DNA from: Psammoneis japonica
Taxonomy: Eukaryota
Length of the DNA stretch: 64,000 bases
NCBI GenBank assembly: GCA_008632985.1
Contig: QPGO01000122.1
Span: 1-64,000 of the forward strand
Direction: 5' to 3'
Part shown: piece by piece, positions 12,837 through 60,369 of the stretch
How positions within the stretch are numbered: position 1 is the stretch's first letter
How the letters are laid out: each line of letters begins with the position of its first letter
Made by a program: the position numbers and the translations under genes
The notes under the pieces: model-generated
What the model saw: only the letters and a program-made list of their open reading frames with translations
Database searches by the model: none
Told to the model about the DNA's origin: nothing

Positions 12837-12869
12837 ACATTTTGCCCGAGTGGGGATAAATTGCACTGT

Positions 12870-19330: not shown

Positions 19331-19399
19331 ACATTGGTCAAGGCCATGGCCAATGTCCTGCAATGCTGCAAACAAGGAACCAGCAGAGGTGCCATGAGT

Positions 19400-22750: not shown

Positions 22751-23271
22751 TTTGGCAAAAAAAGGGTGAGATGTCCTCCTGAAGAGCGAAGCTTGAGCTG
22801 ACTCTTTATGATTGTCTCCTGTCACAGTGCACAATGCAGGAAAATTGTGCTGCAGAAGGCGCAAAATTGTTGCAATGATTTGAAAAGATGGCACTGGCCT
22901 CATCTCCACCACAGCTTGCCAAAGCGGAACACAAGGTTGGGAGCACAGCACGGCGTGACTTTGGCATCTTGAAGAGACGTGGTCCGCCAAGAAAGAGTGG
23001 AGTTGTGCTGGGAGGTCTGGTGTGAAGGCCGCCACGTGAATTCCAGTGGAGCAGTGGGAGCATTGTGTGAAGCATCGTGCTTGTACCGGTGTGTGTTTCC
23101 GGGTTTCAGTGTCCTCCGAAGCAATTTTTTGACGTGTTGTGTTGAACACTGCAAGCATCCATCCGGTGCACAGACATGCTGCTGCCTGCTGCATCACGTT
23201 CTCGTTAACTCTTTCGCATATCTTTGCATACACAGAACACACAAGTCCTACAACTCGTTCATCGCCACAAT

Positions 23272-27785: not shown

Positions 27786-28058
27786 CTTGAGCTTGTTTGC
27801 AGCCTCTGCTCAGCGTTGGTGGTGCCTCGAACAGTCATCAGCTCCTTGCTCCATGAGACGCTCTCTGCCCCGAAACGATCGGAGCTGGAAGCCAATTGGT
27901 TCATCCTTTGGGCAACCACACAATTTCTTCAACTCATGATCTTTGCCAAAAAGGAACGACATTCTGTCATCCACCACTCCGACTGCCGAGCACTCTTCCA
28001 CCATCGCCGCACCTCTTGGGACATCAGGCATTGTTGAGCTGCCTTCACCCTTTGAATT

Positions 28059-30500: not shown

Positions 30501-31061
30501 GAGAACAGTGTGCTTGCAAAGGTGCAAGAAGAGCGCAGTTGTCGCATGGTGTCGAGAAGGGCGTCGTTGCGTCCCTTGCGGCATCGTGGTGGGTGGTGGC
30601 GAAATGATGCGGCTGCAAGAGTTGTTTTTCAAACAACACGGCCTGCCGCGTGGAAGCTTCTACGAGAAATTTGTGTGGAATTGCACTGACCTCCAGAAAA
30701 AGAAATCGTCACACCTCCCACAGCCCCACCATGCTCGCTCCATCAAGGATGGATCGTCTGGATGAGGTGTTTTTTCAGTTGGCTCGTGATTTTGCAATTT
30801 CCCCGTGCTTCGCCCGTGTCATTTTGCCATGCCTCTGAGCACCCCCAAACACATGTGACTGTGTCCAGCCTCCATCAGGGCTGTTGGATCTACATGTGAA
30901 CTGCACATTTCAACCTTCAAACGCCAATTGTCGGATTCGGCGCAGTTGCCACATGCGACAAACCGCTGTTTTTCGCCAAAATCGCACTGCTCATGGGAGA
31001 TGAGCCACAACTTTCCAGGAAAAGCCGACATTTGGCGTTTGACTGGCTGTGGACACATCCA

Positions 31062-31475
31062 CCGTGCACTTGAGCATTTGTGATGAGTTGAAATTTTGTA
31101 CGCACAGTTGCCCCACATGCGACACATCGATGGAAAGCTGAGAGTCTGCTCATTCCGTGGGGGGGGGGGAATGGGGGGGTGAGCTCTGGCAGTTTTTTTT
31201 GGAAGATGAGGCATGAGTTTTGGGTGTGATCATTGAAGTTTGTGCAATTGTTAAAATGATCAATGTTGTGCCTCATTTCTTTGATTGGCGAGCAACCGAA
31301 ATTGTGGAACACTTTTGACATGCCAAACACGACCTGATTTGGAGCCGTTGGTGTTTCAATGCATTCCACAGACATGTGGGCGTGCATTAAAATAGGTCTG
31401 GGGGTCAAAAACTCCAAATCGCGACCCCCAAGTGTTCCACAGTTTCAAAGTCATCGAAAACATCCAAAAACACGG
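31062..31475. mobile_element. ~414-bp pogo/Tc1-type MITE, copy A (TA-depleted)
   Basis: ca|CCGTG...CACGG|tg termini; homologous over its full length to 47190-47605. Confidence 0.85.
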
Positions 31476-32085
31476 TGCAGTCGTCAAGCCAAAGATCGCG
31501 CATGGTCACGACCATCGCCAACACATTCCATGATGTCTTTCGAAGGGACAAAGTTCGACCTGTCGCTGAAAATATTTTGTTGGCGAGCGCGCGCATCCAG
31601 CACGAGAAATCCGGGTTTTTTTTCCAAAAAAATGCGAGCTCGCGCGCAAACAAACCTCATCTCGACGATCCATCCTTGCCCAAGGGGGACCGCCGACCTG
31701 TTTTTTCCGCGTTTGTCCTAAAATTGGCAATGTGTTTGAATGCGTTTGTTTACAATCATCAATTTTAAATACAAGAATTGTTCGATCGCCCACGAAAACG
31801 AGAACATCAGGCACCGCGATCAAAGCACGACGATGACGGCAATTGCGCCATCTCTCAAAATTGGCCCAGTGGCACGAGGGACGAAAGCATGCAAATCAAT
31901 CTGCGCCACATGACGACAACAAAACCAGTGAGTGTCCCTCGTGACACTTTGCAACTCACCGCTCGTCGCGAACATCATCATTGTCGCTCGTGCTTTTGTC
32001 GTGTTATTTTCTGTCGCGACCCGTCAAAAACACGTAAAACCCCGGAAAAGACGTGCGAAAAAAATAAGCCGACGGCCCGCCTTAA

Positions 32086-32887
32086 GACCCTGTCCAAACT
32101 GGATCATACGTATGATCATACCTGACGTCATAGAGCCTAAAATTAGCCTCTTCGAAAAAATTAGTGGTTATTTATTAGCCCTATGCATGACGCAATTTTA
32201 GGCCATACGATTTTTCCAGAGGAACAGTGTTCTCGCGATAAGTGGACTCTAGCTAGAGTAGACTAACTGGAAATGTCACATGTACCCCCACATCATACCC
32301 CTGGGGTCGACACACGAAACGACCCAGAAATGGCTTTTTTGATGCAACCACAGCGCTTATGGCTGTACCCTATCCACAAGAAACCTATAATATGATCATA
32401 TGCGAGAGCTTGCTGTGTTTGGGGCGCTCTACGTGCCGTTCTTGGCTTGTCACGACGCACAGTAATTTTGCTGAACCTTCTCTCAATCAATTCTCGGCAG
32501 AAACTCATACAATGAAGTTGCTTATATATAAGTCATACATAAGTTTGATTTTATGATCGATTTGTCTCCTTTACATGGCTTATTGTAGCCTTATGGTTGC
32601 GTTCTCGTCGTCATGGTGGCGTCGTTCTCGTCGTGTGGTTTTATTCTGTTTCAATCTAACCTCATCGATGTAGTTAGTTTAATGCCCTTGTTAAATGATC
32701 AACCTTCGTCAGTCATAAAATATATAAATCAGTATGTTAAGATATTCGTGTATTAATAAAACTGGGGTATGCATAAAAGTATGATTGAGTTTGGAAAAAG
32801 CACTCGTGGGTATGACTCTGCTACGTCAGCAAAAAGGCTTCGTGACGTCAGGTATGATCATAGGTATGATCCAGTTTGGACAAGGTC
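32086..32887. mobile_element. PIF/Harbinger (Tourist-like) MITE, 45-bp TIR, TAA TSD
   Basis: taa|GACCCTGTCCAAACTGGATCATACGTATGATCATACCTGACGTCA ... TGACGTCAGGTATGATCATAGGTATGATCCAGTTTGGACAAGGTC|taa, with 2 mismatches. Confidence 0.9.
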
Positions 32888-32979
32888 TAATACGAATACA
32901 ATCGACAACAATCGTACCGTGCGGCAGCAAAGTTCGTGTTCGCTCCAAAAGCAACGAGTCAAAGCATAAGTGAGACACA

Positions 32980-33642
32980 ATGATTCAAGAGAGTAATGCT
33001 CAGGTCTTACTGGGAAACGACGCCGACCTTGGGAGCTTGAGAGATGACATTCAGAGGAACGCTTCGCTATCGCTACCAAAAGAGGAGGAAGTGTTGTACC
33101 AGACCCAGGGCAAGATCCAGCGAGAAGGAGAGGATGACAGACAGAAACATGATGGAACCGTGCTTGTGACAAGTAAACGACTGTTGTTTGTAGCGTCTCA
33201 AGACAAAGCTCGGGATGTTGCGATAGACGCTGAGTGTATTCATCTGCATGCCATGTCGAGTGAACCTCTTTTATCCGTGTATGTTCAAATTACGGAACCG
33301 GGTCCAGGTGATGATTTCATAGAGCTCAGTATAATACCAGACAACGCGGAGAATAAATGTCAAGGTGTGTTTGATGCATTGTCAAGACTTGTGGCCATGC
33401 ATCCAATCACGGACAGTGATAATGATGACGATGGCGACAACAACATGATGTTTATGGCTCCACCGATGACAACAGCTGCAGAGAACGGGCTTCCTACTCC
33501 AGATGAGAGACAAGCCATGTTGGATCGGCTAGACAATTTGCTAGTGGTACCGCCAGAATATGAAGTTGACGATGGACAGTTTGATGACGCGGAAGAAAAC
33601 GTCGCTGACGAAGATGAAGATGACGACGACCCGTTGCTGTAG
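32980..33642 (+). CDS. Voldacs-domain protein (pICln/methylosome subunit-like)
   Basis: GTVLVTSKRLLF...IDAECIHLHAMS...VYVQI...VFDALSRLVAMHP followed by acidic tails, typical of pICln. Confidence 0.75.
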   Translation: MIQESNAQVLLGNDADLGSLRDDIQRNASLSLPKEEEVLYQTQGKIQREGEDDRQKHDGTVLVTSKRLLFVASQDKARDVAIDAECIHLHAMSSEPLLSVYVQITEPGPGDDFIELSIIPDNAENKCQGVFDALSRLVAMHPITDSDNDDDGDNNMMFMAPPMTTAAENGLPTPDERQAMLDRLDNLLVVPPEYEVDDGQFDDAEENVADEDEDDDDPLL

Positions 33643-33690
33643 GACTTTAATACTACTCGTGTAAGTGTTCTGAGATATGTGCGAACAAGT

Positions 33691-36600
33691 TCATTGCAAT
33701 GAAGGCCGAATTCGTCGCCCGTCTGAAATGCTTTGCAAGTCAAAGCCTTCTTTGGCAAGCGTCTGGATCATCACACTCTCCACATGGCGAGCTTCTGTCT
33801 TGCCTCCGGAAACAGCCATGGCAATGGCATGGGCGTTCTTCCACGCACCACCCTTTGACCGATGTTGTTTGAGACGATTTCGTAATGAATCCGTTTCCCC
33901 TACGTAATATCGAGCACCGCCGTCCATCAACAGCAAAACGTACAGGCAAGACTGACCCTCCAACGAAGCCGGCGGTGTCCAACCTGGTTTTATAACGTGA
34001 GCCTTCTCCTCGACAACACCTTCTGCGATTCGAATCACTTTTGAAAATCGTTCCATTTCACCATTGAGCGCTCTTGCGCCTACGCCATTCTTTCTTACCA
34101 TTGGTGTTCGCGCGACTCTGAGGCTGTCGTCCATTATGTCTGGCGCGTCGGAGTCGTCACTACCAAGATTATCCATTTGAGAAGCAAAGTCTTTCGCACG
34201 ATCTAGAATCTCGTTGGGAAGCCCAAATCGCTTTGCAGTCACTAGTGACATGCTGTCCGTGCAGATGCCATCTTCCAACCGATAGGTCCACACATAGTCT
34301 CCATTCTCATCATTTTGCTCGTGAATAGCCATTCGTTTATTGAAAATGCGATCCTGCGTTCCCAGCAGCGGAAGACCAAAGACATCATGCAAATGAGTGG
34401 CAAATATTCCACTCATTCCCTTGTTCGCCATGGCTTCCAATACTGCACCGGCTATGGACGTCCCATCCTTTGGGGAAGTGCCCCGCCCAAGCTCGTCGAC
34501 AAAGACTAGAGATTTCGAACCACAAGACCGAAATAGAGCAGCAATGTCTTCCATTTCGGCTCCAAAGGCGCTCTTTTGTTCTGTAGGGACATCGGCAGAA
34601 GCTCCGCGCACAAATATGCTATCAAACCGTGCCACGGTCGAGCCGGGTCCCACTGGCGCACACAGACCGCAATTCGTCAACAAGGCTGCGGCTGCCGTAG
34701 CTCTCATCAAGGTACTCTTGCCACTCATGTTAGGAGCTGTCAACAAAAACAAACCTTTGAACTCAAAAGAGTTCTTGACAGCTTGCGAACGATCCATCCA
34801 GTACGGCCATAAATCATTGAAGTGACCAACCGCGCTGTTTTCGTTGTCGCCTTCTACCGATCTTTCGTAGTTCTCGGCCATGTTCCATCCCAAATTGTTT
34901 GCTTTGGCTGCGTGGTGGGAGGCGGTAGAAAGAATAAGGTTGGTGTGCGCTGCTTGGACCACAGAAGGCAAATGACCCGACTCGCAAAGCGTCTGACTAA
35001 GCTCGGTCAACACCAAAGTAACCTGCTTACAGGCATCATCACAGGCTGACACATAATCAGACAACGCATCCTGAACTCGTTTGGTCGTGTAGCGATTCCG
35101 CAAAAGTTTGCCGTTTCGATCTCTTGGATGAATGTATGCCGACTCCCCGTCGTTATCGGAATGAGCTGCCCACGACGGCGTTTCTCGAAGTGCAAACAAG
35201 TTGTTAAAGACATCTTGTACAATTGGATTCTTGATTTCTGTCATCCGTTGTTTAACATGCTTTTTGAGTTGTATAGTATCCTTGACATTCGCTGCGGTGG
35301 CTTTGTCTAATCCCCAAAAGTCAATCGCCACAGCCTGTGCCAGCTTCAATGCCGATTCTTTAACCTTGTCGTAGGCGCCTTGAGCTGCTTCTACCCTGAC
35401 CCGACCTCTCCAGGTGGCTTCGTTCCGCTCAAAATAGGCCGGCGGGATCAGTTGATCAAACTCGGAAATTTTATCATGCATGCCATCATCTTCATACTGA
35501 ACAAACGACATGGATCCAGCATGGTGCAAGGGACTTACAACATTTTCAATAATGGCCGTTGCTTCTTGACAACGTCTCTTGACGGATTCAGCATCCGCCT
35601 TGAGCCCGCTTTCATACTCTAAAAGCACCATTAGTGGGTCTACCAGTGTCTCTATTCCCTGGGATTGATCAAATAGCGCTGCATCCAAAACTTCCATTGT
35701 TGAATCCATGGCGCCAAGGAGTTCTCCATACACGTTCGCACTTGCCTGTCCTGCACGAAGGAGAGCCAGTATTTTTCCTACAGGAGGGACAGACAGAGGC
35801 GGCAACGCAGCTCCTTGATCTTTAAGATAGACCACAAGAGAGGACATGGCATCCGCGACTTTTGGAGGTGGTGGAGACAAGAGCCATCGACGGAGAAATC
35901 GACGGGTTGCCGCGGGTGCCGACGACTCGGGAACTAGCGACGACACCAGCGAAGGAATGGTCGTATCGGACATGAGACCCAGCTGAGTCGCAGTCTCAAC
36001 GTGAAGAGGATGGGTGTGAGTTTGCCCACTGCTTTCGTCGTCATTGCTAGATGAAGCGCAGGATACTAATGTGAAATCATCAACAGTCACAAGTTGTCCA
36101 GCAGTGCCATCAACGTCATCCTGCTGTTCGGTCAACTTTATCAAGGCAGATACAATAGTGTTTTGCGCGCATTCCAAGTTTGTAACTCCTGGTGCCAGGC
36201 CCTGCATGACCGTAGGAGGTAATATCTTGGTTCTAACCTTTGATCCGGGCCCATCGCTTGCCGAATCAAACCGCGACGGTATAAATGGCAAGGCAAGACC
36301 TGAAGTAAAGGCGGCATCTGCGTATTCACTGGGAGATGGAACGTAAATCAAAGGGTCTGCTGGTGGATATGCGGCAAGCCGACAGGCGACGGCCTCTGCT
36401 GTCAATCGTTCTGATACTCGTACCGATCGCTCCTCCATCGACACTTCTACAATAGTGTATCCACTTGCAGCTGAAATGACTCCAACATGTGGTCGCGACG
36501 CGGGAGCCGTGACAAGAGTATCGGCATTTCCCAATAGCACCAAGTCATAGAGATATGTTGGCGAGGCTGAGGAAACAATTTGTGCCAGCATTCTGTTTTT

Positions 36601-37833
36601 GAGACGCGCCTTGGCGCCTCCCGTCGCCCCGGAACCAGCGGAAGAGTCGGTATCGGCGGCTTCTTCATAGACAGCAACGCGAAAGCCTTGATTCGTCAGG
36701 CAGTCCAACGTGGCCTGAATATTACGAATCGGGCAGCCAGCTCTTGCCTTGCCAGCCATGGCATTCAGACCACAATGCTCCACAAGCATAATGGCATCAA
36801 GTCCAAAGCTCTCGTAAAATTCACCAACACGCATCAAAATCACGCAATCCGAGTATCGTTGTTTTTGTTCTCTCACATAATGTAGCAATGATCCCTTTTT
36901 TCCTGCTGCAGTTGATGAAAGGGGCTCAGCAATTGCCTTACCCCGCAGGGGATCATGTGGTACAGCTAGTGAATCGTATCCCATTGGACAAGTTCTGGAG
37001 TTCAATTGAGCAACCAAGGTTCGAGCAGACGGCTTTGTCACGCATCGTAGAGGCTCTCTCCAGTAGTCATCGATGAGGCATTTATCACCAAATAAACTGT
37101 CCACCATGTTATCATAGGGGGTTGCCGCTTCCCTTGTTCGTGGCGATATGTCAAGCAATGGTGCGTCTTCTTCTTGAACAATATCATCCGAGTCCGGTAT
37201 TGTTGAAAAGGCTGCAACAGCTTGTCGTTGTTGTGGAGACGACAACATTTTCCCCATTATAGTAGTTTCAGGGTTGCTTCCAACTGGCTGCAGCCGACGA
37301 AGCTGAGATGACACTTCTCGATGCTGCAAGACCAACTTTGCAAGAGCTTGTTGCTCGGCATGCTCGACATCAAGCGCAGCCTTGAGTAATACGCTTCGAC
37401 TTGTGCTCTGAATAGTACCAAAGATTGCTTGAGAGACTTGCTTTGGACTGTTGACATTGATGGGCTGGCCACGATTCACTGTCGTGATTTCTCGTTCAAT
37501 CTGAAGTAGCCTCTCTTGCAATTGCTCAGCGTCATTATCAGAAGATTCTGCAGAGAGTTTTGCAGAAGAAAACCTGTGGCTGTTATTGCGACCTCCGGGG
37601 GAAAATAAGGAGTGCCTCTTGTGAATAGCACACTGTCTCGCTGGTGGATAGAAAGGATACGCAAAAGCTCCAATGTGACGACGACCGCGGTATGCTTTAC
37701 TCGACGTCAAACACCGGTGCATAATATCTCTTCGAGCGTAAACAAAAAGGTTCGACTTTTCTGAAACGTCAAAGCACCACAAGAACCAAAGATAAAAGAT
37801 AACCCTATGGATAATCATAGAGTGGAAAGGCAT
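33691..37833 (-). CDS. MSH1: Plant-type organellar MutS homolog 1 (MutS + C-terminal GIY-YIG endonuclease)
   Basis: RVGEFYESFGLDAIMLVEHCGLN..KARAGCP (domain I FxE), TAPNMSGKST (Walker A), DVPTEQKSAF, VFVDELGRGTS, FATHLH and C-terminal LYVL..YYVGETD..RLKQH. N-terminal targeting-like extension. Confidence 0.93.
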   Translation of the reverse strand: MPFHSMIIHRVIFYLWFLWCFDVSEKSNLFVYARRDIMHRCLTSSKAYRGRRHIGAFAYPFYPPARQCAIHKRHSLFSPGGRNNSHRFSSAKLSAESSDNDAEQLQERLLQIEREITTVNRGQPINVNSPKQVSQAIFGTIQSTSRSVLLKAALDVEHAEQQALAKLVLQHREVSSQLRRLQPVGSNPETTIMGKMLSSPQQRQAVAAFSTIPDSDDIVQEEDAPLLDISPRTREAATPYDNMVDSLFGDKCLIDDYWREPLRCVTKPSARTLVAQLNSRTCPMGYDSLAVPHDPLRGKAIAEPLSSTAAGKKGSLLHYVREQKQRYSDCVILMRVGEFYESFGLDAIMLVEHCGLNAMAGKARAGCPIRNIQATLDCLTNQGFRVAVYEEAADTDSSAGSGATGGAKARLKNRMLAQIVSSASPTYLYDLVLLGNADTLVTAPASRPHVGVISAASGYTIVEVSMEERSVRVSERLTAEAVACRLAAYPPADPLIYVPSPSEYADAAFTSGLALPFIPSRFDSASDGPGSKVRTKILPPTVMQGLAPGVTNLECAQNTIVSALIKLTEQQDDVDGTAGQLVTVDDFTLVSCASSSNDDESSGQTHTHPLHVETATQLGLMSDTTIPSLVSSLVPESSAPAATRRFLRRWLLSPPPPKVADAMSSLVVYLKDQGAALPPLSVPPVGKILALLRAGQASANVYGELLGAMDSTMEVLDAALFDQSQGIETLVDPLMVLLEYESGLKADAESVKRRCQEATAIIENVVSPLHHAGSMSFVQYEDDGMHDKISEFDQLIPPAYFERNEATWRGRVRVEAAQGAYDKVKESALKLAQAVAIDFWGLDKATAANVKDTIQLKKHVKQRMTEIKNPIVQDVFNNLFALRETPSWAAHSDNDGESAYIHPRDRNGKLLRNRYTTKRVQDALSDYVSACDDACKQVTLVLTELSQTLCESGHLPSVVQAAHTNLILSTASHHAAKANNLGWNMAENYERSVEGDNENSAVGHFNDLWPYWMDRSQAVKNSFEFKGLFLLTAPNMSGKSTLMRATAAAALLTNCGLCAPVGPGSTVARFDSIFVRGASADVPTEQKSAFGAEMEDIAALFRSCGSKSLVFVDELGRGTSPKDGTSIAGAVLEAMANKGMSGIFATHLHDVFGLPLLGTQDRIFNKRMAIHEQNDENGDYVWTYRLEDGICTDSMSLVTAKRFGLPNEILDRAKDFASQMDNLGSDDSDAPDIMDDSLRVARTPMVRKNGVGARALNGEMERFSKVIRIAEGVVEEKAHVIKPGWTPPASLEGQSCLYVLLLMDGGARYYVGETDSLRNRLKQHRSKGGAWKNAHAIAMAVSGGKTEARHVESVMIQTLAKEGFDLQSISDGRRIRPSLQ

Positions 37834-38317
37834 ACAGACTGACTCTCTTGCTCTACCGTAGCACTACGCTATTATATTGTCTCAAAGATTTGCCGTCTCC
37901 TTGCTTACTTCTCGTCGTCATTTTGCAGGCTAATTTTGAAGAGATTGCAAGATGTGTTTGCCGGATTTCGCAAAAAATGAGCGACAGCCAGACGGAGAAA
38001 GATCGTAGTCGCGCTCGCGCGCTGGCGGGTGCGCGCTCGCTCGGAGCTTCCTCAGTTCGCACTCTTCGTACCCAAGTTTAGATGGAGACGAACCGTGCGA
38101 AGCAAGACCCCTCATCTGGCTAGACCATCGTCATGTGCCTCTCCCAGAGGAGGGTGCCTCTGGGCCAAGATGACCGGTTTCTGTGACCGGTCAAACTTGT
38201 CGGCATCCTGTTTCCCCTCACTTTTCCATCTTTGTTGAGACAGGAACCCTGATCAACGTGACTGGACCACACCAAAGCATTGGAAAAGCTGTTTTTTGCT
38301 CCCTCTCTTGCTCGAAC

Positions 38318-40796
38318 ATGTCTGACTTCTTCGCCTCCGGCGTCGACAACGAGGCCTTCGTCAACATTGCCCGCACTCTCGAGTCGGATGTCATCTCTCT
38401 GTTCTCGTCGCGTTCTCCTCCGTCGCCCGCTGCTCGGGCCCCACCCTCTGGGGTGGGTCATCAGGGGGGTGCTGAGGGCTTGAACCCCTCCCTTGGGGGG
38501 TTGAACCTTGGAATGACCGACACTGGGCACTCGACATTGAGCTCGCGGAGTTGGGGGAGGTCAACACCCCCAACCCGGATTCGGCTTTTGATGCCCTGCC
38601 ATCGAGAGCCGATGGAGCACAGGCCCACGCACCTCGCGTGGACTTTTTTGCTCCGGGAGATGAGGGAGCAACTCGAGGGGCGTTTACGTCGAAGGAGGAA
38701 GGTGCGTCTCCTTCGTCTGATGCTCCTCGTTTTCGTGTCATCTGGATGGAGGGCACCGATGCCACCCGCTGCCTTGGTGTGATTGGGGGTGGTGCAACAT
38801 TTTGTTTCAAGAAAGCCTCGGAGTGCAAAGTGAAACACAAGGGATCCAAGAAACAAGTCCCTCTGAACGGCATGGTGTTGATCCTTAAGACGCCGGACAC
38901 GGCTTTCTGCCAACCCACTCTTGACGGCTCGTTTGTCTCTGCTGATGTGTTGGTCAAGTGGGAGTCAGCGTCGGACACCTTGGCGGGGTGGCGTCAGAAG
39001 TTCCCAGCTCTGGGAAACAGCGAGTCGCGCTTCCCAATGGAGGACCAGTTTGGCGAGTCTCTGAAGCAGCACAAGGAGGCTGCGGCCTGCAAAACCCCAG
39101 CTAAAACCAAGGATCCTGGGAGCGATTTGTTTCCAGGGGCACAGTTTGGGCAGTTCTTGCCTTGCCAATGGGCGATCACCACCACCCCATCCCAATTCCT
39201 TGCAGCAAACAAGAGTCCTGCAGCCCTGGCTCATGTGGTGCAGTCGGTCGAGCGAAACTTGTCAGAGACAGGACACGTCCTGGTCGACTTGGGGAACAAA
39301 GCCTGCTCTCGGTTCAAAGACTCGGACTTGGCACTTGATGTGCTGAGTCGGAAGTTGGAACAGCTCAATGCCACTCTTGGCACCCCTCCGGCGGAGCTCG
39401 ACCAGCGAGTGGAAGCTCCGACCATCTGGGGGACGCTCGCCAACCTGTCGACACTCAGTCCTGGAGTGCATCAACCTCGGGATTTTTCTGCTGAGTTGGC
39501 CCGATTGGAAAGCAGCGCTCGGGCCGGGTCCAACAGATTGGCGTCAAGTGTCACTGCAGCTCTGCAGAGGGTGCAGGCCCAGCTCTCTGGCCTTGCTCCT
39601 AAACGTGACCTGGACTCTCTGAGGGCGGGGACCCTGAGAGTCTGCAACCAACCAGTGGCGAAAGTACAGAGGTTGGAGAACGCCGCTGCGTTGGGTGGAG
39701 GAGTTGCCAGTTTGGGCAGTGGGGCGAGCGGAGCAGGTGTCGCGCCTCTTGGGACACTCGATCGTCAAATCCGAGACCTCAGCCAAGCTGTCAATGAGCT
39801 GAAGTCAAAATCGGAATCGTCAGCCATCAAATTCTCAGGTGCAGGCGTTTCTTCATTCGCAGAATGCGAAGCCTGGATGGTCCAGCATTTTTCCTCCAGA
39901 GCGTGTGGGTGTCTCACGGACGCTAACTTGTTGTTGGACCGAATTGTGGGCACCGAGCCGGCCGCGCTGCATCACTTCCTTGCTGGATTGTCCAAACGGA
40001 TGGACTTGAAGATCAGTGTGGAAGAGGATGCACGGACACTCGCCTGTTTCCAATGCAGCATGCCGAGGATTCTCGACTCGGGGTCAGCGAAAGGAGCTCA
40101 GTCACCTGGGCTGCACCCCTCATTCCTAGACAAGGTGTCGACCCACGACCATTGGACGACGGGATCCACTGGTGCAAAACACTTTGTCATGGAAAAGATC
40201 GTTACGATCGAACGCAATGCCTTAAATGACATTTCCCAGAGGGTCCCGAGCGGTTCCTTTGAGAGCCAGGTTGTTCGAGACGCTCTGTCTAAGTCCATGG
40301 CGTTCGCATGGGCCCTGACACAGTTCGCGGATGAGACTTGCGAAAATCTTGTGCAGTTGAGCAAGTTTTCTCAGAAACAGGCTTGGTCTTTAACGTCAAA
40401 ACTGGCACACCGCATCTTCAATGACCTCAACCAGGTTCGGTCGGGGGTTTTCACTTCGATCACAGGGACTGATCCCGATGCGGTGTGCAGTCAAATTCTT
40501 TGGGCGGTGTTCCGGTCCCAGGACGCAATGGCCGAACACACGGCACACAACTTCAAGGACCACCCCTCGATGGCGTCTGAGCATGTCAAGTTCCTCGCGA
40601 CCAATTCGGGATTTGAAGTGGTGACAGCTTTGCAGGCCACGGTTGTGACCCTCACTTGACAAGGCCAAGAATGCGGGCACGGAAGCGAAGTCAGCGCAGG
40701 CGCGAGCCGATGCGGCACACCAAGAGGTGAACAAGTTAAAAACGGAGCTGAAAGAGGTGAACCGTCGTCTGAAGGCTCTAGAGACAAAGAAATGAA
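38318..40796 (+). pseudogene. Ngaro gag-like ORF1 (frameshifts near 38550 and 40655)
   Basis: 702-aa open stretch with CLGVIG..FC...C..KH N-terminal motif, coiled coils and FKDHPSMASEHVKFL. It contains no Tyr. Confidence 0.75.
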
Positions 40797-40801
40797 GCCA
40801 G

Positions 40802-43800
40802 GTGGGGGGCGGACCACAGGTGAATGAAAATGTGGGGCACGTTGTTCGCGGTCGCAAATTCTTTGCCTTTCGCGGGACATGCTTGGTCATCTGTGGCGGT
40901 CCCCCCATTTGGCTCTTGGCCCTCCGCTGTTCTGAATGGCCTCGAGTTGTCCTTTGCTTGATTGATTCCGACCCGTCTCCCTTGGAGTTGGTTCTCATTG
41001 CCCTTTTTGAGTCGCAAGAGGGAGCTTCCCTTCAGCGCATCCCGTTCTCCGGGGTGTCTCATGCATTGGAGAACTCTGATTTGGCACTGGTTTCGGGGCC
41101 TCCAGGTGTTTTGGAGAGAGTTTCTCGTGTGGGGTGCACGTGCCCGATGCACATGGTCCCGGTTGGGGGGGTGTCGAGATGGGCTTTGAAGGGGCTCCAG
41201 CATCTCCCTCATTCGGCCATTTCTCATTCGGGGGTGGGAGGCGTGACTTCCTTCCGCACAACGTTCTTCTGCATCGGTGGCGCGTTGCCAGAACTTGATC
41301 ACGGGCTGCGGCGGACCATTGGTCACATCATTGATTGCAAATGCGAGGGGCAGGTTAGCCCCCAGGAGTCTGGGGAAAGGGTGTGCCGTGAGTGCGATTT
41401 GTCACACCCACACCATTTGGGGCGGAAGGTTCTTTGCCAGTCCCACCGGTCACCCACGGGGTGGATGGTCCGCACTCTCACTGGAGATGAACTCCTCGCC
41501 GGGTGGGATTTTCCCATTGGGTTTCGGACTCAAGCTGTTCAGGACCAGTTGGGGGGTGAATGCCTCACACAGCTGGTTCCATTGAATCTCCTCTCTACAG
41601 TGACGGACGGTTTTATTTTACAAGGCTCCAGCCCCCGGTTGCCGCCGGAGGTCCAGCCATCCCCGGCTGCACGGTCTCCTGAGCTTCCGGCATCCGGTCC
41701 TCGGGTTACATGGCTGCCGCGACTAGGTCGGTGCTTGTCGCACGACTGGATCGACTTGTCTCTGATTGCCGCCAAGGCTGCAAAAGGGGATTTGGTCGCC
41801 CCCCCTTGTCGCCTCTGGGACAAGCGCATCACTCTCTTGTTTCCCATGTTCGAACTGGTGCTCCCGGCCCTGCGCGGGTTGGCCCACCGGTGGTGGCGGC
41901 GACGCTTGACTCGGTCGCCATTGGGTTTCCTGCATCGGCGTTGTGGCCCAGGATGGATGATCCATCTTGCACAACTTCGTCGACGGCTTGGGGACTCTGT
42001 TGCAAGTCTTCAGGGGGGTTTGTGCTGGGACCCACCACTCCCCTCCCTTTTGTTGGACGCCAACTTGGGAGCAGAGGTCTTGATTCAAGCTCTGGGGAGT
42101 TCATGGTGGAGTTGGGACCGGGGGTCCTCGCTTTTCTTCTGGCGCTGGCCCTCTCCTGAGCAGCGGGATGGGGCCCGTGACGGCATTCCGATCTTTGTCC
42201 AGACCACCCTCCCTTGGAATCGGCGGCGGCAACGCATCCGCGGCACGTCCAATGAGATCCAGCGGATGGCGGCAAAACTTCAGAAGGTCCGGGATCATGG
42301 TTGCATTGAGGCGGGGCCAGTGTCCAGCCTCACCGACTGTTTTTGGGTCCCGAAGGCGGTGTCTCTGCTCCCGAGGAGCGATGGAAGAATGGAAGAGGTC
42401 GTGGAAGATGTTCGCATGGTCTACAATGGGACCTCGTCTAAACGACGCTCTGTGGGCCCCTTCATTTTTCCTCCCGACTGCATCCTCAGTCCTCAGCTGC
42501 ATGACTCCAACCACCTTCTCTGTTGACTTGGACTTGGGTGACATGTTTCTCAACTTCTTCATGGACCCCCGCACTCGGCCTTGCGCCGGGATCGACCTGA
42601 CCCCGCTTCGCGACCACTTGCCGAAACCTTTGGCGGGTCAGGCTCCTGTGGGGCTGGAGAGGTGGAACCGCCCATTCATGGGTGTGAAACCCAGTCCTCA
42701 CCTGGCCGTGCGCGCTTGTCATTGGGCTGATGAGGTGGCCCGGGGGGACCCGGGATGGCCGGGTAACCCGATGGGCTTTGACAAGATCCCATTCAATCTG
42801 CCGGGCGATCCCGATTACGATGTGAAGAAGCCGCTGGTGATCAAGTGGAACTCTTGTCAAGAGGTCATCGCAGGCGATGTCAAGACTTTCGTCGAGGGGC
42901 ATGGGATCAAGCGAAGAAGAGGCTTGGCAAGTGGGCCATCAAATGGCTTCGAGACTCCAGTGTCTTGGTCTCCAAAACGCGGCCCGGAAAGTGCGGCCAC
43001 CATCCCAGCACGAAACTGGGGCCTGGGCCGGAGCGATCTTTCGGGCGACAGAAGGAGACGTTGCCCAATCCCTGTCTCAAGCGAAGTGGGACAAGAGCAA
43101 GACAATGATTGCGGACCTGTTGAGCTTCTACGACGGATTGCCTGCCTCCTCCCTCCCACTGTTCAATTTTAAGGATTTGGAAAGGAAACGAGGATGCCCA
43201 GTGCACGCGGCCATGACCCACCCTTTTGTCACTCCGTTCCTTAAAGGAGTTCACTTGACCTTGGATGGGTGGTGCCCTAACCGCAAGCCCGATGGATGGG
43301 CCATGTCAAACAAGGAATGTGCAGTGTGGATTCAGCACGAAGCGGACAAGCTTGGCATGGAACCGCACGAGGTTAGGGAGGCCCTCCAGGACGCGAGGCA
43401 CCCCGAGTCCGTTCGCGCGGTGCCGCGTCTCTTGTCGGATTTGAAAGCTCTACGGCGGATCTTGGAACCTGAGAAACCAACCACCAGGGTAATCAGGTCC
43501 TCTAAGGTCATGGTGGTTTTGCATGGGTTTGCCGACACATCTGGAAAGGGACTTGGATCCTCAGTGGAAATGAAGGACAGCGCGACAGTGTTCAGGATTG
43601 GTGCATGGGGCAATGATGACCAGTCAAACTCGTCAAACTGGAAGGAACTAACCAACACAGTGGACTCCATCCAGGAACTGGCCGAGGCTGGGGAACTCGA
43701 CCGTGCTGTGTTGCATTTCTTCACGGACAATTCTGTTTCGGAAATCGCCGTCTACAAGGGAACCTCTTCCAACCCTAAACTCCTGGAACAAGCAGCACGG

Positions 43801-44600
43801 CTCAGAGTCCTGGAGGCCAAGCATGGATTTACATTCCACTTGATTCATGTTTCGGGGAGTCGCATGATGGCCCAGGGCATGGACGGAGTTTCTCGAGGGG
43901 TCCTCTCGGAAGGCGTTATGAATGGAGCCAAAATGCTCTCGTTTGTCCCTCTGCACCTGCCGGCAACTGAGCGAGCACCACCACTCCTGGGGTGGATTCA
44001 GTCTTGGGCCGGATCTCCCACAGCCGATCTACTCTCCCTGCTTGATTGGCATCAGAAGGGGCATGACACATCTGGGTGGCGTCACCCACCCCACGAAGCC
44101 GTTGAAATGCCAACCTTTCGCTCTGGCACCTGGGTCTGGGCTCCGCCCCCGGCTGCAGCAAGGAATGCACTTGAAGAACTGTGGATTGCTCGACTCAAGC
44201 GACAGACTTCTTTCCACATCTTCATGTGTCCCCGCCTGATGACTCCTGAGTGGCAAAAACAACTGCACAAGGCAGCCGACTTGGTGTTTTGAGTTCCGGC
44301 TGGGGCCGGGCCTTTCTGGCCCGAGGAGATGTTCGAACCTTTGCTCGTGGGCCTTGTTTTTCCGTTCATCTTACACAGTCCATGGCAACTCCGAGGCACC
44401 CCAAAAATGCACTCAATGGACCGGGTGCTGCGGAGAGTGTGGGAGGATGCTGAAGTGGATGAGAGGCATCTTCTGCACAAATTTTGTTCACAGTGTCGGG
44501 GGCTGGCCCGCGTGCCAAAAAGCGTGGTGTCCCGGGTGCCATGCTTCAAGCAAAAACGTGACATTCCACCTGGGGGGGATCCTCCAGCCCGACCAATGAA
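40802..44600 (+). pseudogene. Ngaro RT/RNase H ORF, frameshifted
   Basis: FWVPKA...DVRMVYNGT, LNDALWAPSFFLPT, DLDLGDMFLNF, FMGVKPSP, GAWAG, HGFADTSGKG, SSNWKEL, FTDN, HVSGSRMMAQGMDGVSRG and WAPPPAAA. Confidence 0.9.
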
Positions 44601-45948
44601 ACGATGGCGAGGAGCTTCCCGGTGAGGATGCCACTCGGATCGAGGACAACACCTGGTTCCGGAAACCACAGGACAAGGACAAGTTCACACGCGCGCGAAC
44701 CGGGGACCATTTGATGGTGGCTTTTGAGTGCAGAACGGGTGCATCTTCCACAAGCTGCACTGGAGAGACCCCTTCCCCACCTCACCACGTGACGAGGTGG
44801 CTTTGGCTTGTGTCAGGCGGGTGAACCTGGATGCCTTCTGGAGTGGAGAGACCTCCACGGCAGAGAACAATGTGTCCAAAGTCGCCCGGAGTTCAGCTCT
44901 CTCAGAGCGTTTGGGGCTCCAAGGACCTTGCTTGGAGCCAGGACCTCTTCTGTCTTTTGATCATTGTGGACATGAGGTTGCGATGCAGATGGTCTTGGCT
45001 TCGATGTCCCCGGGTCGCCACTCTGACTTGTGCGCTCAATTCGACACTGTTGGGAAGCTGCGGACTGCGCACTTGAACCAGGTGAGGTCTTCGGCTTCTG
45101 CAAACAGGCGAGCCTTGGCTCTTGCGGACCTCGAGGGCAAACAACATCTCCGCATTTGCGAGGACCCGTGCGCTTCCCTCTGGTTCCAAAGGTTTGTGAC
45201 AGGTTGCAAAAGATGCATGGGTCAAGATTGGAGACCAGACAGGGCCATCTCGGCGCAGATCATGCAACACCTTTTGCCCAGGATTGAAGAAAAGTTCAAC
45301 CGGGCCACCGCAGCTGGGGATCGCCTCAGGTGCTTGACTGGTGGCCTGTGCTTCGCGGCTAGTTTCATGTTGTCCCTCCGAGGACCCGAAGGCTTGCTCA
45401 TGGATTTGGGTGCCATGCAAGAACACCTGCCTCTCCATCAATCCCACGTGGTGATCCCGCTTCTCGGTCAGGTCAAGGGAGAACACGGGGAGCGCCAACA
45501 CCTGCTTCCGAGTGTAAATGTCACGGGATCAGGTGTTCGCCTCCGGCAGTGGATCCAGGCAGTTGTGACCTTACAAGCATCAAGAGGACGCACTCGAGGA
45601 CCAGCCATGTCGGACGATGGTGGAAAGGTCTTGTCCACTCATGACCCAAATGTGCTTCTTTACCTCGCCCTGTCAGAGCTTTTTGATGACCACCCGCCCC
45701 TCTTTGGGGCAGACATCACCTCCCATTCGGACATTGAGGACAAGTGCGATGTGAGCAGGTCTTTCCGTCGCGGGTCGGATTCAAGAGCCATCGCTCAAAA
45801 TGTGTCGGAGGACGATGTTGATGTGGTGAATCGGTGGAAAAAGAAGGATCGAGCTGGAGGGACCAGGCCGTCTCACAAGATGAGGCAACACTGCGCGGAC
45901 ATCTCTCTCCTCCTCCCTTGCTTCTTAAGACACACTCAGGAAATGTGA
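44600..45948 (+). pseudogene. Tyrosine recombinase of the Ngaro element; presumed catalytic Tyr reads as Cys
   Basis: SLRGPEG (R), LLGQVKGE (K), SRSFRRGS (xxxR), VNRW and MRQHC (expected MRQHY). Confidence 0.88.
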
Positions 45949-47189
45949 GCCAGCTCGGGCACGCCCTCAGGGTGCATTTGGCACGAGCTGTTCTCTGCGG
46001 GTGGCCACTGCCTGGGAGTTCTCATCGGGGGGGGGGGGGGGGGATTTGTGCTCACCTTTGCCGACAAGACCGCGGGAGTCTATCGCCAAAGTCTAGATCG
46101 GTTTCTTTCGGTTTCACATCCTCGACGACGCCCAACTGCGAAGGCAAAGAAATGGCGTCTGGCGTTCTCTTTGATTCCAAGTTCGAGAATCCCTTGGTTC
46201 GGGGTGTCGACATCGCGCAATGCTGAAGGTGCCCCCCACTGGGTTCGTTCGGAAGCGCCCGGAGCATGGTCCGATGAACCAATCCTTGAGCCCTCGAGTT
46301 TTGCTCGAGACCCTGCGGAGGGTGTGGGTTTGCCCAACCCCCCCAGTGCAGAGTAGAGTGTTGCCGAAAACTCTGCTCTATGAGACTTCCAAGTGCTCTA
46401 ATGCCGAGCCACTTCTCAGTGGTTCTTGGCAAGGCAGTCCTTGGCCTGGCCCCAGATGAGATCGGCACCGCACACTGTCAAATCCTCTTCGTGCCCAAGT
46501 TCAGATGGAGACGAACTGTGCAAAGCAAGACCCCTCATCTGGCCAGACCATCGTCACATGCCTCTCCCAGAGGAGGGCACCTCTGGGCCAAGATGACCGG
46601 TTTCTGTGACCGGTCAAACTTGTCGGCATCCCATTTCCCCTCACTTTTCCATCTTTGTTGAGACAGGAACCCTGGTCAACGTGACTGGACCATGCCAAAG
46701 CATTGGAAAAGCCCTTTTTTGCTGCCCACCCACCACTCCCTGGATTTGTGCTCACCTTTGCCGACAAGACCACGGGAGTCTGTCGCCAAAGTCTAGATCG
46801 GTTTCTTTCGGTTTTACATCCTCGACGACGCCCAACTGCGAAGGCAAAGAAATGGCGTCTGGCGTTCTCTTCGATTCCGAGTTCGAGAATCCCTCAGTTC
46901 GGGGTGCCGACATCGCGCAATGCCGAAGGTGCCCCCCACTGGGTTCGTGCGGAAGCGCCCGGAGTGTGGCCCGATGAACCAATCCTCGAGCCTTCGAGTT
47001 TCACTCGAGACCCTGTGGAGGGCATGGGTTTGCCCCCAACCCCCCCAGTGCGGAGTAGAGTGTTGCCGAAAACTCACTCTATGAGACTTCCAAGCACTCT
47101 AATGCCGAGTTGCTTCTCAGTGGTTCTTGGCAAGGCAGTCCTTGGCCCAGTCCTAGATGAGATCGGCATCGCACACTGTCGAATCCGCA

Positions 47190-47605
47190 CCGTGCACTTG
47201 AGCATTTATGATGAGTTGAAATTTTGTACGCACAGTTACCCCACATGCGACACATCGATGGAAAGCTGAGAGTCTGCTCATTCCGTGGGGGGGGGAATGG
47301 GGGGGCACCGGTAAGCTCTGGCGGTTTTTTCGGAAGATGAGGTATGAGTTTTGGGTGTGATCATTGAAATATATATAATTATTAAAATAATTAATGTTGT
47401 GCCTCATTTCTTTGATTGGCGAGCAACCGAAATTGTGGAACACTTTTGACATGCTAAACACGACCTGATTTGGACCGTTGGTATTTTAATGCATTCTACA
47501 GACATGTGGGCGTGCATTAAAATAGGTCTGGGGGTCAAAAACTCCAAATCGCGACCCCCAAGTGTTCCACAGTTTCAAAGTCATCGAAAATATCCAAAAA
47601 CACGG
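47190..47605. mobile_element. pogo/Tc1-type MITE, copy B (TA partly retained)
   Basis: ca|CCGTG...CACGG|ta; homologous to 31062-31475. Confidence 0.85.
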
Positions 47606-47733
47606 TACGACGTCAGGCCATTTACGACTGAAAGCTGAAAGCGCCGACGTGTCAACAGCGGCGTCTCCACATCTCACATCGCATCAAGTTGCTGTTGTCG
47701 GATGAAAGAGACAGAGGAGAACAAGAGTTGAAA

Positions 47734-50024: not shown

Positions 50025-50307
50025 CACTGCGTCGCAATAGCTGGTCGTTTTAAAAACCAGTTTTTCAACCCATAAAGGTAGTCTCCGCATTAATCACCCA
50101 GCATTTCAATAGTATGTCGGGCATCTACTAGCATTGGCAGTTTGGGGGCAAGGATACGCAGCTGCTTACATAGAGGACAACAATGCTGATGCAAGCCATC
50201 ATACCTTTTCTCTCAGGCTTAACCACTTGTAGAACCCGTTGCTACATTGCTTTTGTTCGCTTTCAGATTCCTACATGCAAGCAAGCACTTCCTAGCTGTG
50301 TCAAACT

Positions 50308-51730: not shown

Positions 51731-51742
51731 TGTCGCGCCCAA

Positions 51743-53491: not shown

Positions 53492-53499
53492 CCAAGGTG

Positions 53500-60249: not shown

Positions 60250-60369
60250 CACAGCATTGTGTCTTGGAGAGGTGTCTGGCACAGACACACTTGGCACGTT
60301 CCAAATGCCCTTGACCAGGTTGTGCCGACTCCCCCCGTTTGTTTCTCCTGTCATGTCCCAAGCTTGCTT

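Follow-up and report, generated by a model that had tools for sequence, protein, structure and literature searches.

Two copies of a short repeat from the diatom Psammoneis japonica, copies A and B, differ mainly at TpA dinucleotides that are present in copy B and are replaced by TpG or CpA in copy A. Both copies are located in a 64 kb stretch of DNA, and the term window refers here to the full 64,000 nt. The differences probably reflect a process that changes TpA to TpG or CpA and is confined to gene-less, partly repetitive blocks of the P. japonica nuclear genome; copy A was hit by it and copy B was spared. At 5'-TA-3', the process would change A:T pairs to G:C on one strand or the other, giving TpG or CpA. 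It would be limited to sharply bordered blocks that are gene-less and, at least in part, repetitive, within which it would be nearly saturated. Copy A is within such a block and would have been hit there; copy B is in gene-bearing DNA just beyond the next block and would have stayed untouched. The spectrum of changes, the TpA context, the random use of strands and the confinement to blocks are directly visible in the sequences. Comparisons of related sequences show the direction of change at 7 of 16 sites, in neighboring duplicates and at the Tyr codons of an element termed E1.

Differences between copies A and B

Copy A is 416 bp (positions 31062–31477, forward strand), with bounds set by contigs that join position 31061 straight to 31478. 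Copy B is 418 bp (positions 47190–47607, forward strand) and is the first sequence beyond a depleted block that ends at 47189. Alignments of positions 31060–31491 with 47188–47620 by MAFFT and blastn show 92.5% identity. There are 25 substituted columns. Five of these are within a length-variable poly-G tract (31168–31172) and were left out of the count, as the alignment there is arbitrary, which leaves 20 scored substitutions. Sixteen have TA in B and either TG (9) or CA (7) in A; the original prediction was about 16, and the three sequence examples quoted with it are present letter for letter. Two other sites have CpG in B and CA or TG in A (31191 and 31200). A third difference of this kind is in the flank (CA at 31478–79, CG at 47608–09), and the original count of about three CpG decays included flanks. 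The remaining two substitutions, G/A at 31238 and T/A at 31240, agree with the predicted number of other changes, and the latter also takes one TA away from A.

Copy B has 21 TA and copy A has four. Thus 17 of the 21 TpA of B are gone in A, nine as TG, seven as CA and one as TT, and outside TpA and CpG there is a single substitution, a transition. The 17 changes, out of 20, are within TA positions, which make up 42 of the 418 positions of B, or about 10% (binomial p = 9e-15). The TG-or-CA loss of TA is also asymmetric between A and B (16:0, sign test p = 3e-5), and chance is ruled out. As originally proposed, TG and CA outcomes are interleaved along A and both strands have been hit; the order is random, with 9 runs compared with 8.9 expected. 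Given that 17 of 21 TpA were lost compared with only two CpG decays and one other transition, the rate of TpA loss is roughly 100 to 1000 times background.

The sequences to the left (30960–31061) and right (31478–31580) of copy A are parts of one multi-copy host repeat, which received the element. The flank is covered by up to 50 contigs at one site in run X1, and paralogs of the host repeat have CA where the window has TG, and vice versa. Five contigs have an empty site, with 31061 joined to 31478, which shows a clean 416 bp insertion. The element was originally described as a MITE and as a DNA element with no RNA intermediate. MITEs are characterized by a target-site duplication and by inverted repeats at their ends, usually at least about 10 nt long. 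No target-site duplication is present at the empty sites of the paralogous host repeats, and the flanking CA occurs once per side. Terminal inverted repeats of at least about 10 nt were not found in the element; there is a 5 nt match inside its bounds, which extends to 7 nt only when two flank bases are included. As MITE status is not borne out, the absence of an RNA intermediate is an assumption, and a search of Rfam gave no match to the element. What can be said of the family is that it is short (416–418 bp), non-coding and multi-copy: besides A and B there is a third locus, and additional contigs have variants of the element.

TpA-depleted blocks in the window

The depleted DNA of the window amounts to 41.3 kb and has 234 TA, compared with about 2468 expected (5.6 TA/kb). 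The normal DNA, 19.6 kb, has 843 TA compared with about 1364 expected, and genic DNA has 43 TA/kb. Rho TpA is 0.2 or less in 37 of 64 one-kb bins, and three stretches of more than 1 kb are without any TA. The GC content is 0.51 in depleted bins and 0.48 in normal bins. These values are nearly equal, and there is thus no general AT-to-GC drive. Copy A has a rho TpA of 0.14 and its flanks have 0.05 and 0.18, whereas copy B has 0.63, as in the genic DNA found here (0.48–0.77).

The depleted blocks within positions 1–23084 are at 1–7870, 8706–12300 and 12695–23084 (rho 0.08–0.11), with TA-richer islands between them (7871–8705 and 12301–12694). There is no TA at 19319–20624 or at 21055–22174. Copy A is in the block at 26778–32004, which has 33 TA compared with 326 expected (rho 0.10). 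This block and the one that contains elements E1 and E2 (38122–47189, 54 TA compared with 415 expected, rho 0.13, 57% GC) are separated by TpA-normal, gene-bearing DNA at 32005–38121, where there is a Voldacs-domain ORF (32974–33642) and an ORF with MutS plus GIY-YIG (33691–37863, minus strand). TpA-normal, gene-bearing DNA starts again with copy B (47190–52540, 246 TA compared with 383 expected, rho 0.64) and includes a DDHD-domain ORF (48729–50024). Further blocks are found at 53300–56058 (7 TA compared with 147 expected, and zero between 54977 and 56059) and at 59746–62179 (6 TA compared with 159 expected). The borders of depletion are sharp and match element ends at 47189/47190 and at about 38062–38121. 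None of the 56 ORFs scanned in depleted blocks matches Pfam, and in normal DNA several scanned ORFs have Pfam matches, namely to MutS, DAO, DDHD, bestrophin and Voldacs. Among the TpA that survive, ATAT and ATAC/GTAT are nearly absent, and TTAA, CTAA and CTAG are relatively spared.

Direction of change

TA appears to be the ancestral state, which copy A has lost on both strands, with TG or CA as the result. This direction is well supported by four independent lines of evidence: the location of A compared with B with respect to the blocks, the outgroup contigs, TG-versus-CA alternates, and the Tyr codons of E1. The A/B pair had been expected to give the mutation spectrum directly, but the outgroup evidence is needed as well.

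The outgroup sample consists of read-derived contigs, of which 296 from run X1 were aligned to a 621 nt stretch around copy A. Per-site states are those of the variant rows listed, and 84 further rows are outside the listing. Among the rows listed, the letter of B is found at 7 of the 16 TA sites in the third copy and in other contigs of the family, e.g., in four contigs at 31181, in one at 31258, in three each at 31324, 31357 and 31367, and in four of four at 31353. Most contigs also have B's state at both CpG sites. The third locus is represented by one contig of run X2, which has the letters shared by A and B at 31293, 31303, 31319, 31333, 31334 and 31347. This contig has B's state at 31324, 31353, 31357, 31367 and 31477 and at the 31344 indel, and across the 3' 200 nt of the element it agrees with B wherever A and B differ, among the rows listed. 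Since it shares the lineage letters of A and B and yet has B's state, the 3' changes appear to be private to A. In addition, B has a perfect 12 nt palindrome, and the mismatches that interrupt it in A are precisely those at 31353 and 31357.

The original prediction that TA is ancestral is thus upheld by other copies at seven of the 16 sites only, the other nine being without polarity. A family state of TG or CA, which had been named as evidence to the contrary, is seen at none of the sites that have a listed row. Positions 31080, 31110, 31250, 31461 and perhaps 31212 have no variant among the rows listed; most other copies may share the TG or CA of A at these positions, and ordinary C-to-T change may have created some of the TA in B. 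There are inverted repeats of 8–10 nt in A (31206–13 with 31269–76 and 31227–34 with 31255–62) that would favor A's state at 31212, 31258 and 31261, and chance alone would give about 1.6 perfect 8-mer inverted repeats in DNA of this length. The family also has sub-lineages, with variants at 31399, 31418, 31419 and 31428 that are common to 8–10 contigs.

Element E1 (38062–46484, forward strand) has four long ORFs on the same strand with 0–0.4% Tyr. Its first 242 bp (b1) and last approximately 450 bp (a1) recur in E2 (46485–47189, forward strand), an internally deleted copy of E1 that consists of b2 (46485–46726) and a2 (46742–47189). E2 follows E1 in head-to-tail orientation, and copy B comes immediately after it. 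ORF1 of E1 (38476–40659, forward strand) has 727 codons and zero Tyr. It is a member of a large unannotated protein family with 701 relatives, and the median Tyr content of 61 homologs is 1.8%. At the eight columns of this family with at least 30% Tyr, E1 ORF1 has Cys in three, His in three, Phe in one and Ser in one; six of the eight are therefore TGY or CAY codons (TGC, TGT, TGC, CAC, CAC and CAT). In contrast, Trp remains at 7 of the 8 columns where it is conserved, and Cys at all 5 of its conserved columns. The family comparison supports the view that Tyr codons of E1 became Cys or His codons and not the reverse. A depleted homolog from another source (P0121) has 0.3% Tyr.

Neighboring duplicates display TG in one copy and CA in the other at the same dinucleotide. 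There are 15 such alternates, seven in a1/a2, four in b1/b2 and four in a 13-kb tandem, and others are present among host-repeat paralogs in contigs (30992/30993 and 31001/31002). The 15 alternates cannot be accounted for by C-to-T mutation alone. Methyl-CpG decay was ruled out as their cause by calculated expectation: based on the counts of conserved and singly decayed CpG, it predicts only about 0.3 (a1/a2), 0.07 (b1/b2) and 0.5 (13-kb tandem) alternates. Methyl-CpG decay does resemble the present pattern in that it also feeds CpA and TpG, and some depleted blocks are CpG-poor (rho 0.26–0.44). However, only 2–3 of the A/B differences are of this type, and CpG is largely kept in the blocks with A and E1/E2 (rho 0.72–0.76).

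Alternative explanations and related systems

The pattern is similar to RIP in fungi in that there are transitions only, along the CpA/TpG–TpA axis and on both strands, with sharp borders on repeated or foreign DNA and a presumed role in genome defense. To our knowledge, fungal RIP was until 2026 the only known genome-wide hypermutation defense of DNA repeats. RIP requires RID and a sexual phase (premeiotic stage), and the usual thresholds are 0.89 for TpA/ApT and 1.03 for (CpA+TpG)/(ApC+GpT). A change of in-frame TA to TG or CA cannot make a stop codon, with the exception of TAA to TGA. An RIP-like explanation of the A/B pair would have an ancestor with CA or TG, and the TA of B would have arisen where C became T in CpA of either strand. 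Besides the common axis, it is favored by the CpA context of 16 of the 19 transitions where A holds C (43% expected, p = 3e-4), by the four or five of 16 sites that have no variant among the rows listed, and by the presence in diatoms of DNMT4 enzymes, which are described as related to fungal RID and of unknown function (PMC9998398). However, RIP changes CpA to TpA, which enriches TpA, lowers GC and makes stop codons, whereas here TpA is destroyed, GC is the same or somewhat raised, and ORFs are open, with TAA and TAG removed. TpA/ApT is 0.04–0.35 in A, its flanks, E1, a1, a2 and b1 and 0.0 in b2, and the other index is 1.14–1.74 in these same sequences, values that do not indicate RIP. Premature stops of the RIP type were not found in the depleted blocks, which keep unusually long open frames. 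The seven polarized sites point the opposite way, as do the changes of Tyr to Cys or His, and the TG-versus-CA alternates are impossible by C-to-T change alone. Classical RIP is rejected on these grounds and has very little probability.

A different timing of the same change, where A was altered in its source copy or during transposition and then inserted, is unlikely. It is in agreement with the sub-lineages of the family, with the coincidence of depletion borders and element ends, and with the untouched state of B beside a depleted element. This last observation also counts against the process we propose, in that B is a member of a multi-copy family and is unmutated. On the other hand, the 3' changes of A are private to A when compared with the third-locus contig (among the rows listed), the TpA level of A is that of its host repeat, and the process in Bigelowiella natans is described as working on DNA that is already integrated. 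Long-read sequencing is known to make systematic errors at modified motifs, and modified TpA might have been misread as TG or CA by a base-caller; neither for the assembly nor for runs X1–X3 is a platform on record. Such an artifact is highly improbable, as run X1 contains 85% of the sampled 31-mers of positions 28000–37900, a stretch that is 40% depleted, and the alternates of the host-repeat paralogs are present in the run's own contigs. The Tyr to Cys or His changes in an open ORF, together with homolog P0121 from another source, also fit real mutation. The least probable explanation is that no special process is involved and that neutral divergence with transition bias, GC-biased gene conversion or selection against TA is responsible. 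TpA is mildly under-represented in most genomes, including the genic DNA here, but the loss of 17 of 21 TpA beside one substitution outside TpA and CpG, the sharp borders and the small difference in GC are not expected from it. The ratio of transitions to transversions among all family contigs is only 81:39, compared with 22:3, 33:3 and 15:2 in three young pairs.

The process that changes TpA to TpG or CpA has a close parallel in B. natans, where a preprint reports the same TpA signature, demonstrated experimentally (Mettrop et al., bioRxiv 10.64898/2026.01.13.699255). Of the 231 mutations found in two integrated viral regions of B. natans mutation-accumulation lines, 230 are A>G or T>C, and all of these are at TpA. 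A process of the B. natans type would be expected to arise de novo and intermittently in such lines at about 1000 times the background rate, to hit foreign (viral or transposon) and silent DNA, and to go with an ADAT2-like deaminase candidate in the genome. The preprint cites work on ADAT2 acting on DNA in amphioxus and trypanosomes. Common to both systems are A>G or T>C changes at TpA, giving TpG or CpA by strand, and regional confinement; the B. natans process also affects sequences with reverse-transcriptase and DDE-endonuclease domains, which we count as a likeness. However, B. natans is a rhizarian and P. japonica a stramenopile, on different branches of the supergroup. The depletion here is far deeper and nearly saturated, with rho 0.04–0.13 over approximately 65% of the window compared with 0.45 in the B. 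natans NCLDV region. What is hit here is multi-copy repeat DNA and an element that lacks annotation, rather than recognized giant-virus or virophage insertions. The evidence here is a sequence footprint, and in B. natans it includes mutation-accumulation lines. An extended context is seen around surviving TpA here, whereas none is described in the accessible text for B. natans. Adenosine deaminases of the ADAR/ADAT type, known for hyper-editing of repeat RNA, have a similar A-to-G outcome and prefer U/T 5' of the edited A, but their substrate is RNA, or there is limited evidence that it can be DNA. If the RNA of a retro-element were edited, one strand only of the copy would be marked, whereas here TG and CA are interleaved (9:7) and duplicates diverge in place.

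We infer an enzyme-driven defense against repeats or foreign DNA. The most likely step, by analogy with the proposal for B. natans, would be deamination of the adenine of TpA to hypoxanthine, and the guide would be the state of the chromatin or its silencing, and not simply copy number. "Reverse RIP" of this type has been reported once so far, in the unrelated alga B. natans, and no report of TpA-erasing hypermutation in diatoms was found in the literature. A broader proposal, which we offer tentatively, is that diatoms have a block-targeted "reverse RIP" that erases TpA from silenced repeats and foreign DNA on both strands, most likely by a DNA adenine deaminase that prefers 5' purine or 3' pyrimidine flanks. 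It would be the same system as in chlorarachniophytes, and hence old in the SAR clade or transferred. It would cripple proteins by changing all Tyr to Cys or His while leaving frames open, and much of the base composition of repeat DNA in diatoms, and many of its "ORFs" without Pfam matches, would be explained by it.

This signature in a diatom, much deeper and over about two-thirds of a 64-kb window, would if true represent a widespread and major force in ecologically dominant algae. The long frames without Tyr and stops in depleted blocks would be mutational relics and not genes. Decay of repeat families would be predictable, such that pairs like A/B or E1/E2 could be used to date and measure the process, and the A/B pair with a family census would make rate, context, strand use and targeting directly measurable. 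Base-editing research would also have an interest in a natural enzyme with editing activity on the A of TpA in double-stranded DNA. The likeness to B. natans extends to the long-term footprint, a low rho TpA together with a high rho CpA+TpG in clustered 1-kb intervals. Across the window the two values are inversely correlated (r = -0.72), and 27 of the 64 intervals pass both cut-offs of the B. natans preprint, including those at 1–8, 16–23 and 29–31 kb.

Differences between two copies of a short mobile element

Copies A (31062–31477) and B (47190–47607) belong to one short element and measure 416 and 418 bp. Alignment of 31060–31491 with 47188–47620 gives 92.5% identity and 25 substituted columns, five of which lie within a poly-G tract of varying length. 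In 16 of the remaining 20 columns copy B has TA where copy A has TG (9) or CA (7), and in two more a CpG in B is CA or TG in A. The last two are a G/A difference at 31238 and a T/A difference at 31240, the latter likewise a TA loss in A. The difference counts and sequence examples of the original prediction are thus accurate, and its claim that both strands are affected also stands: the TG and CA outcomes follow one another in random order (9 runs, 8.9 expected).

The TA count is 21 in copy B and 4 in copy A. TA positions represent 10% of the sites yet hold 17 of the 20 substitutions (p = 9e-15), and the asymmetry of TA versus TG/CA is 16:0 (p = 3e-5). The ~340 sites that belong to neither TpA nor CpG hold a single substitution between the copies, whereas A has lost 17 of the 21 TpA. 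This puts the per-site rate at TpA at roughly 100 to 1000 times the background, an order of magnitude that is broad since it derives from a background count of one. The flanking bases gave no signal as to which base of TA changed in copy A (4 of 7 informative sites fit, by hand).

The limits of the element were determined with read-derived contigs from public runs that contain the copy A locus (X1 and X2), placed on 30960–31580; X1 covers 85% of the sampled words of 28000–37900. The flanks of copy A are themselves a multi-copy repeat, with 296 X1 contigs on this segment and as many as 50 at a single flank position. In five contigs the left flank runs straight into 31476–31478. These are empty sites, and copy A is thus a clean 416-bp insertion at 31062–31477. 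The empty-site contigs show no target-site duplication, and inverted similarity of the termini extends over 5 nt (7 nt if two flank bases are included). In being mobile, short and present in many copies, the element agrees with the MITE label given to it earlier, but it lacks two defining features of such elements, a target-site duplication and terminal inverted repeats of about 10 nt or more. It has no match to any Rfam family, and exact-pattern scans of metagenome_contigs with its conserved pieces found none.

The insertion sites of the two copies are alike (31050–31061 and 31478–31491 versus 47178–47189 and 47608–47620), of the form …ATCC(G)CA, element, C(A/G)..CGTCA(A/G)GCCA; there is no flank homology past 14 nt on the right side. 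Element E1, upstream of copy B, likewise begins after …TTCGCA. The likeness of the A and B sites may point to a preferred target or to a small number of flank bases carried over. Long poly-G runs are found at 31158–31177 and 47286–47305 within the element and at 46028–46043, at the start of a1 (a segment that E1 shares with its neighbor E2), and their length differs between copies. A 54-nt inverted repeat pair, 91% complementary and 696 nt apart, is present at 32085–32888, where the DNA is normal and rich in TA; as a candidate for a true TIR element it is preferable to A or B.

Direction of change

That TA is ancestral and was lost to TG or CA is supported by four independent lines of evidence. 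Other contigs carry the letter of copy B at 31181 (4 contigs), 31258 (1), 31324 (3), 31353 (4 of 4), 31357 (3) and 31367 (3), and at both CpG sites the state of B is that of the majority. An X2 contig from a third locus has six letters that mark the A/B lineage and agrees with B at 31324, 31353, 31357, 31367 and 31477, as well as at the 31344 indel, so these changes are specific to A. Contigs were counted rather than depths, because summed depths are not copy numbers. The contig evidence comprises 40 of 124 variant rows and 15 of 318 contig pieces, from a set in which a filter drops records. Because of this filter, no conclusion is drawn from the absence among the contigs placed of A's G at 31353 and of the C common to both copies at 31293 and 31334, nor from 31247–31269, which is covered by one divergent contig only.

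Copy B contains a perfect 12-nt palindrome that is disrupted in A at 31353 and 31357, and it alone among the inverted repeats within the element exceeds chance. The TAATTATT/AATAATTA repeat of copy B favors TA at 31245, 31250, 31258 and 31261, and the TGATCATT/AATGATCA repeat of copy A favors TG/CA at 31258 and 31261. These 8-nt inverted repeats are mutually contradictory and were dropped as an internal outgroup.

Young duplicated segments contain TG-versus-CA alternates, sites at which TG in one copy faces CA in its partner. There are seven between a1 and a2 and four between b1 and b2, the two segment pairs common to E1 and E2, and four in a tandem duplication at 13.3 kb. CpG decay predicts ~0.3, 0.07 and 0.5, respectively, from the counts of conserved and singly decayed CpG. 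C-to-T change alone gives no alternates; a change of TA to TG/CA is required. Such alternates are also found among read-derived contigs of paralogues of the repeat that hosts copy A.

Further evidence comes from tyrosine in E1 (38062–46484), an element of 8.4 kb with 57% GC compared with ~48% elsewhere. E2 (46485–47189) is an internally deleted copy of E1, placed head-to-tail after it, and copy B follows directly. E1 has four long same-strand ORFs of 727, 576, 483 and 406 codons with no Pfam match. On the identity of E1, Pfam revealed nothing useful for the 60 ORFs and 12 homologues scanned, the ESM Atlas gave no usable match, and a search of IMG/VR gave one match, of 44 residues. ORF1 (38476–40659) belongs to a large unannotated family, with 701 relatives at E <= 0.001 and 60 at E <= 1e-30. 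Tyr has a median of 1.8% among the 150 relatives listed and is not found in E1 ORF1. An alignment with 61 relatives has eight columns in which Tyr reaches at least 30%, and the E1 codons there are TGC, TGT, TGC (Cys), CAC, CAC, CAT (His), TTT and AGC. The chance of six of eight such columns being Cys or His is estimated at ~3e-7 (4.7% Cys plus His). Of the residues conserved in the family, E1 retains Trp at 7 of 8 columns and Cys at all five. The sole relative of ORF1 from a word-based search, P0121 (a JGI 'hypothetical protein'), has 0.3% Tyr, compared with the family median of 1.8%, and Cys or His in three of the eight conserved Tyr columns; the process may also be active in the genome that P0121 comes from.

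The direction is thus established in large part. Seven of the 16 sites are polarised as originally claimed, by contigs and the palindrome, and the duplicates and Tyr columns agree; nine sites are not polarised. At 31080, 31110, 31250, 31461 and perhaps 31212, no variant row is present among the 40 of 124 listed, which suggests that A's letter is common to most copies. A few TA of copy B may thus be its own C-to-T changes; alternatively, the source of most copies may already have lost these TA. Mutation of copy A in its source rather than in place is less likely, since the third-locus contig points to changes confined to A.

TpA-depleted blocks and their open frames

The window is bimodal for TpA. 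Seven depleted blocks (1–7870, 8706–12300, 12695–23084, 26778–32004, 38122–47189, 53300–56058 and 59746–62179), 41.3 kb in total, contain 234 TA where ~2468 are expected (observed/expected ratio, rho, 0.04–0.13), and there are three TA-free stretches of 1305, 1119 and 1082 bp. Five gene-bearing stretches totaling 19.6 kb have 843 TA compared with ~1364 expected (rho 0.48–0.77). GC content is nearly equal (0.51 depleted, 0.48 normal), CpA plus TpG is inversely correlated with TpA (r = -0.72), and block borders are sharp to ~100 bp. Copy A lies inside a block and has a rho TpA of 0.14, with flanks of 0.05 and 0.18. Copy B is the first sequence past the next block, and its rho of 0.63 is at the genic level.

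An exploratory context test compared 233 TA left in depleted blocks with 836 in normal DNA. Among the survivors ATAT and ATAC/GTAT are almost missing (ratios 0.06 and 0.05), and TTAA, CTAA/TTAG and CTAG are in excess (2.7–3.6). Five of six mixed contexts are near the geometric mean of the two palindromic ratios, the exception being ATAC/GTAT (0.05 observed, 0.18 predicted). This broadly fits an independent contribution of the two strands and a process that favors TA preceded by a purine or followed by a pyrimidine.

A change of TA to TG/CA creates no in-frame stop and erases TAA and TAG, so the depleted blocks are rich in long frames. These have 0–0.4% Tyr, and none of the 56 scanned has a Pfam match. 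Frames in normal DNA with Pfam matches are MutS, DAO, DDHD, bestrophin and Voldacs.

CpG is also strongly depleted at 17001–23000, 55001–56000 and 60001–62000 (rho 0.07–0.28, 1-kb bins) and is kept in other TpA-depleted blocks (0.6–0.85), which may reflect two separate decay processes or differing age or methylation. Plus-strand TG:CA counts are unequal at 1–7870 (927:745), 52001–53000 (139:62) and 61001–62000 (87:140), which hints at a strand bias of the process or of the ancestral sequence. A TG-rich array of imperfect 33–71-nt tandem repeats is at a depleted-block edge (52460–53060). Islands of intermediate or normal TpA density within depleted DNA (7871–8705, 12301–12694 and 26288–26777) may be younger insertions, unmutated like copy B.

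Proposed mechanism, known systems and a MutS gene

The observation is confirmed and the main reading, TA to TG/CA, is supported: the spectrum, its TpA context, the symmetry between strands and the regional confinement are shown, and so, for the most part, is the direction. As the most likely mechanism we infer an enzyme that would deaminate adenine in 5'-TA-3' of DNA on either strand; the hypoxanthine product would pair with C, and A>G would become fixed. The target would be the chromatin of silenced repeats or foreign DNA. Mispairing of G with a modified thymine at TpA, or biased T:G repair, is less likely. Classical RIP is rejected: it makes TpA and cannot yield TpA-depleted blocks. A RIP-like origin of the TA in copy B is very unlikely. 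ADAR-type RNA editing of a retro-copy is rejected because both strands are affected and adjacent duplicates diverge. Diatom DNMT4 enzymes are related to fungal RID and described as without known function (PMC9998398); they are no explanation for an A-to-G process.

The literature search found no diatom report of TpA to TG/CA hypermutation, and the sole paper found with such a signature is the preprint of Mettrop et al. (bioRxiv 10.64898/2026.01.13.699255). It describes mutation-accumulation lines of Bigelowiella natans in which two integrated viral regions mutate ~1000 times faster than the rest of the genome. There, A>G or T>C accounts for 230 of 231 viral-region changes, each of them at TpA, and an ADAT2-like adenosine deaminase is proposed. 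Both cut-offs of the preprint select 27 of the 64 window bins, and TpA depletion here is far deeper than the 0.45 of its NCLDV region. The window adds a diatom case, extreme in degree, to a type of system with one earlier description, from 2026. Copy B is intact though it belongs to a multi-copy family and adjoins a depleted element. This speaks against copy number as the sole trigger, unless copy B is very young.

An intron-less ORF of 1390 codons on the minus strand (33691–37863) lies between copies A and B, presumably by coincidence. Its product is a MutS protein in which domains I and V are combined with a GIY-YIG nuclease domain at the C terminus and a weak DNA_pol_A match at the N terminus, the plant-type MSH1 architecture. 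The window is nuclear DNA of a eukaryote, and the MutS relatives place it in a diatom, probably a pennate one; this assignment comes from MutS, as the DAO-like ORF matched no named relative. The named relatives of MutS are from diatoms (Mayamaea, Amphora, Seminavis, Cylindrotheca, Nitzschia and Thalassiosira) at 44–50% identity, with one non-diatom exception, a EukProt scaffold labelled Alexandrium; other relatives reach 56%.
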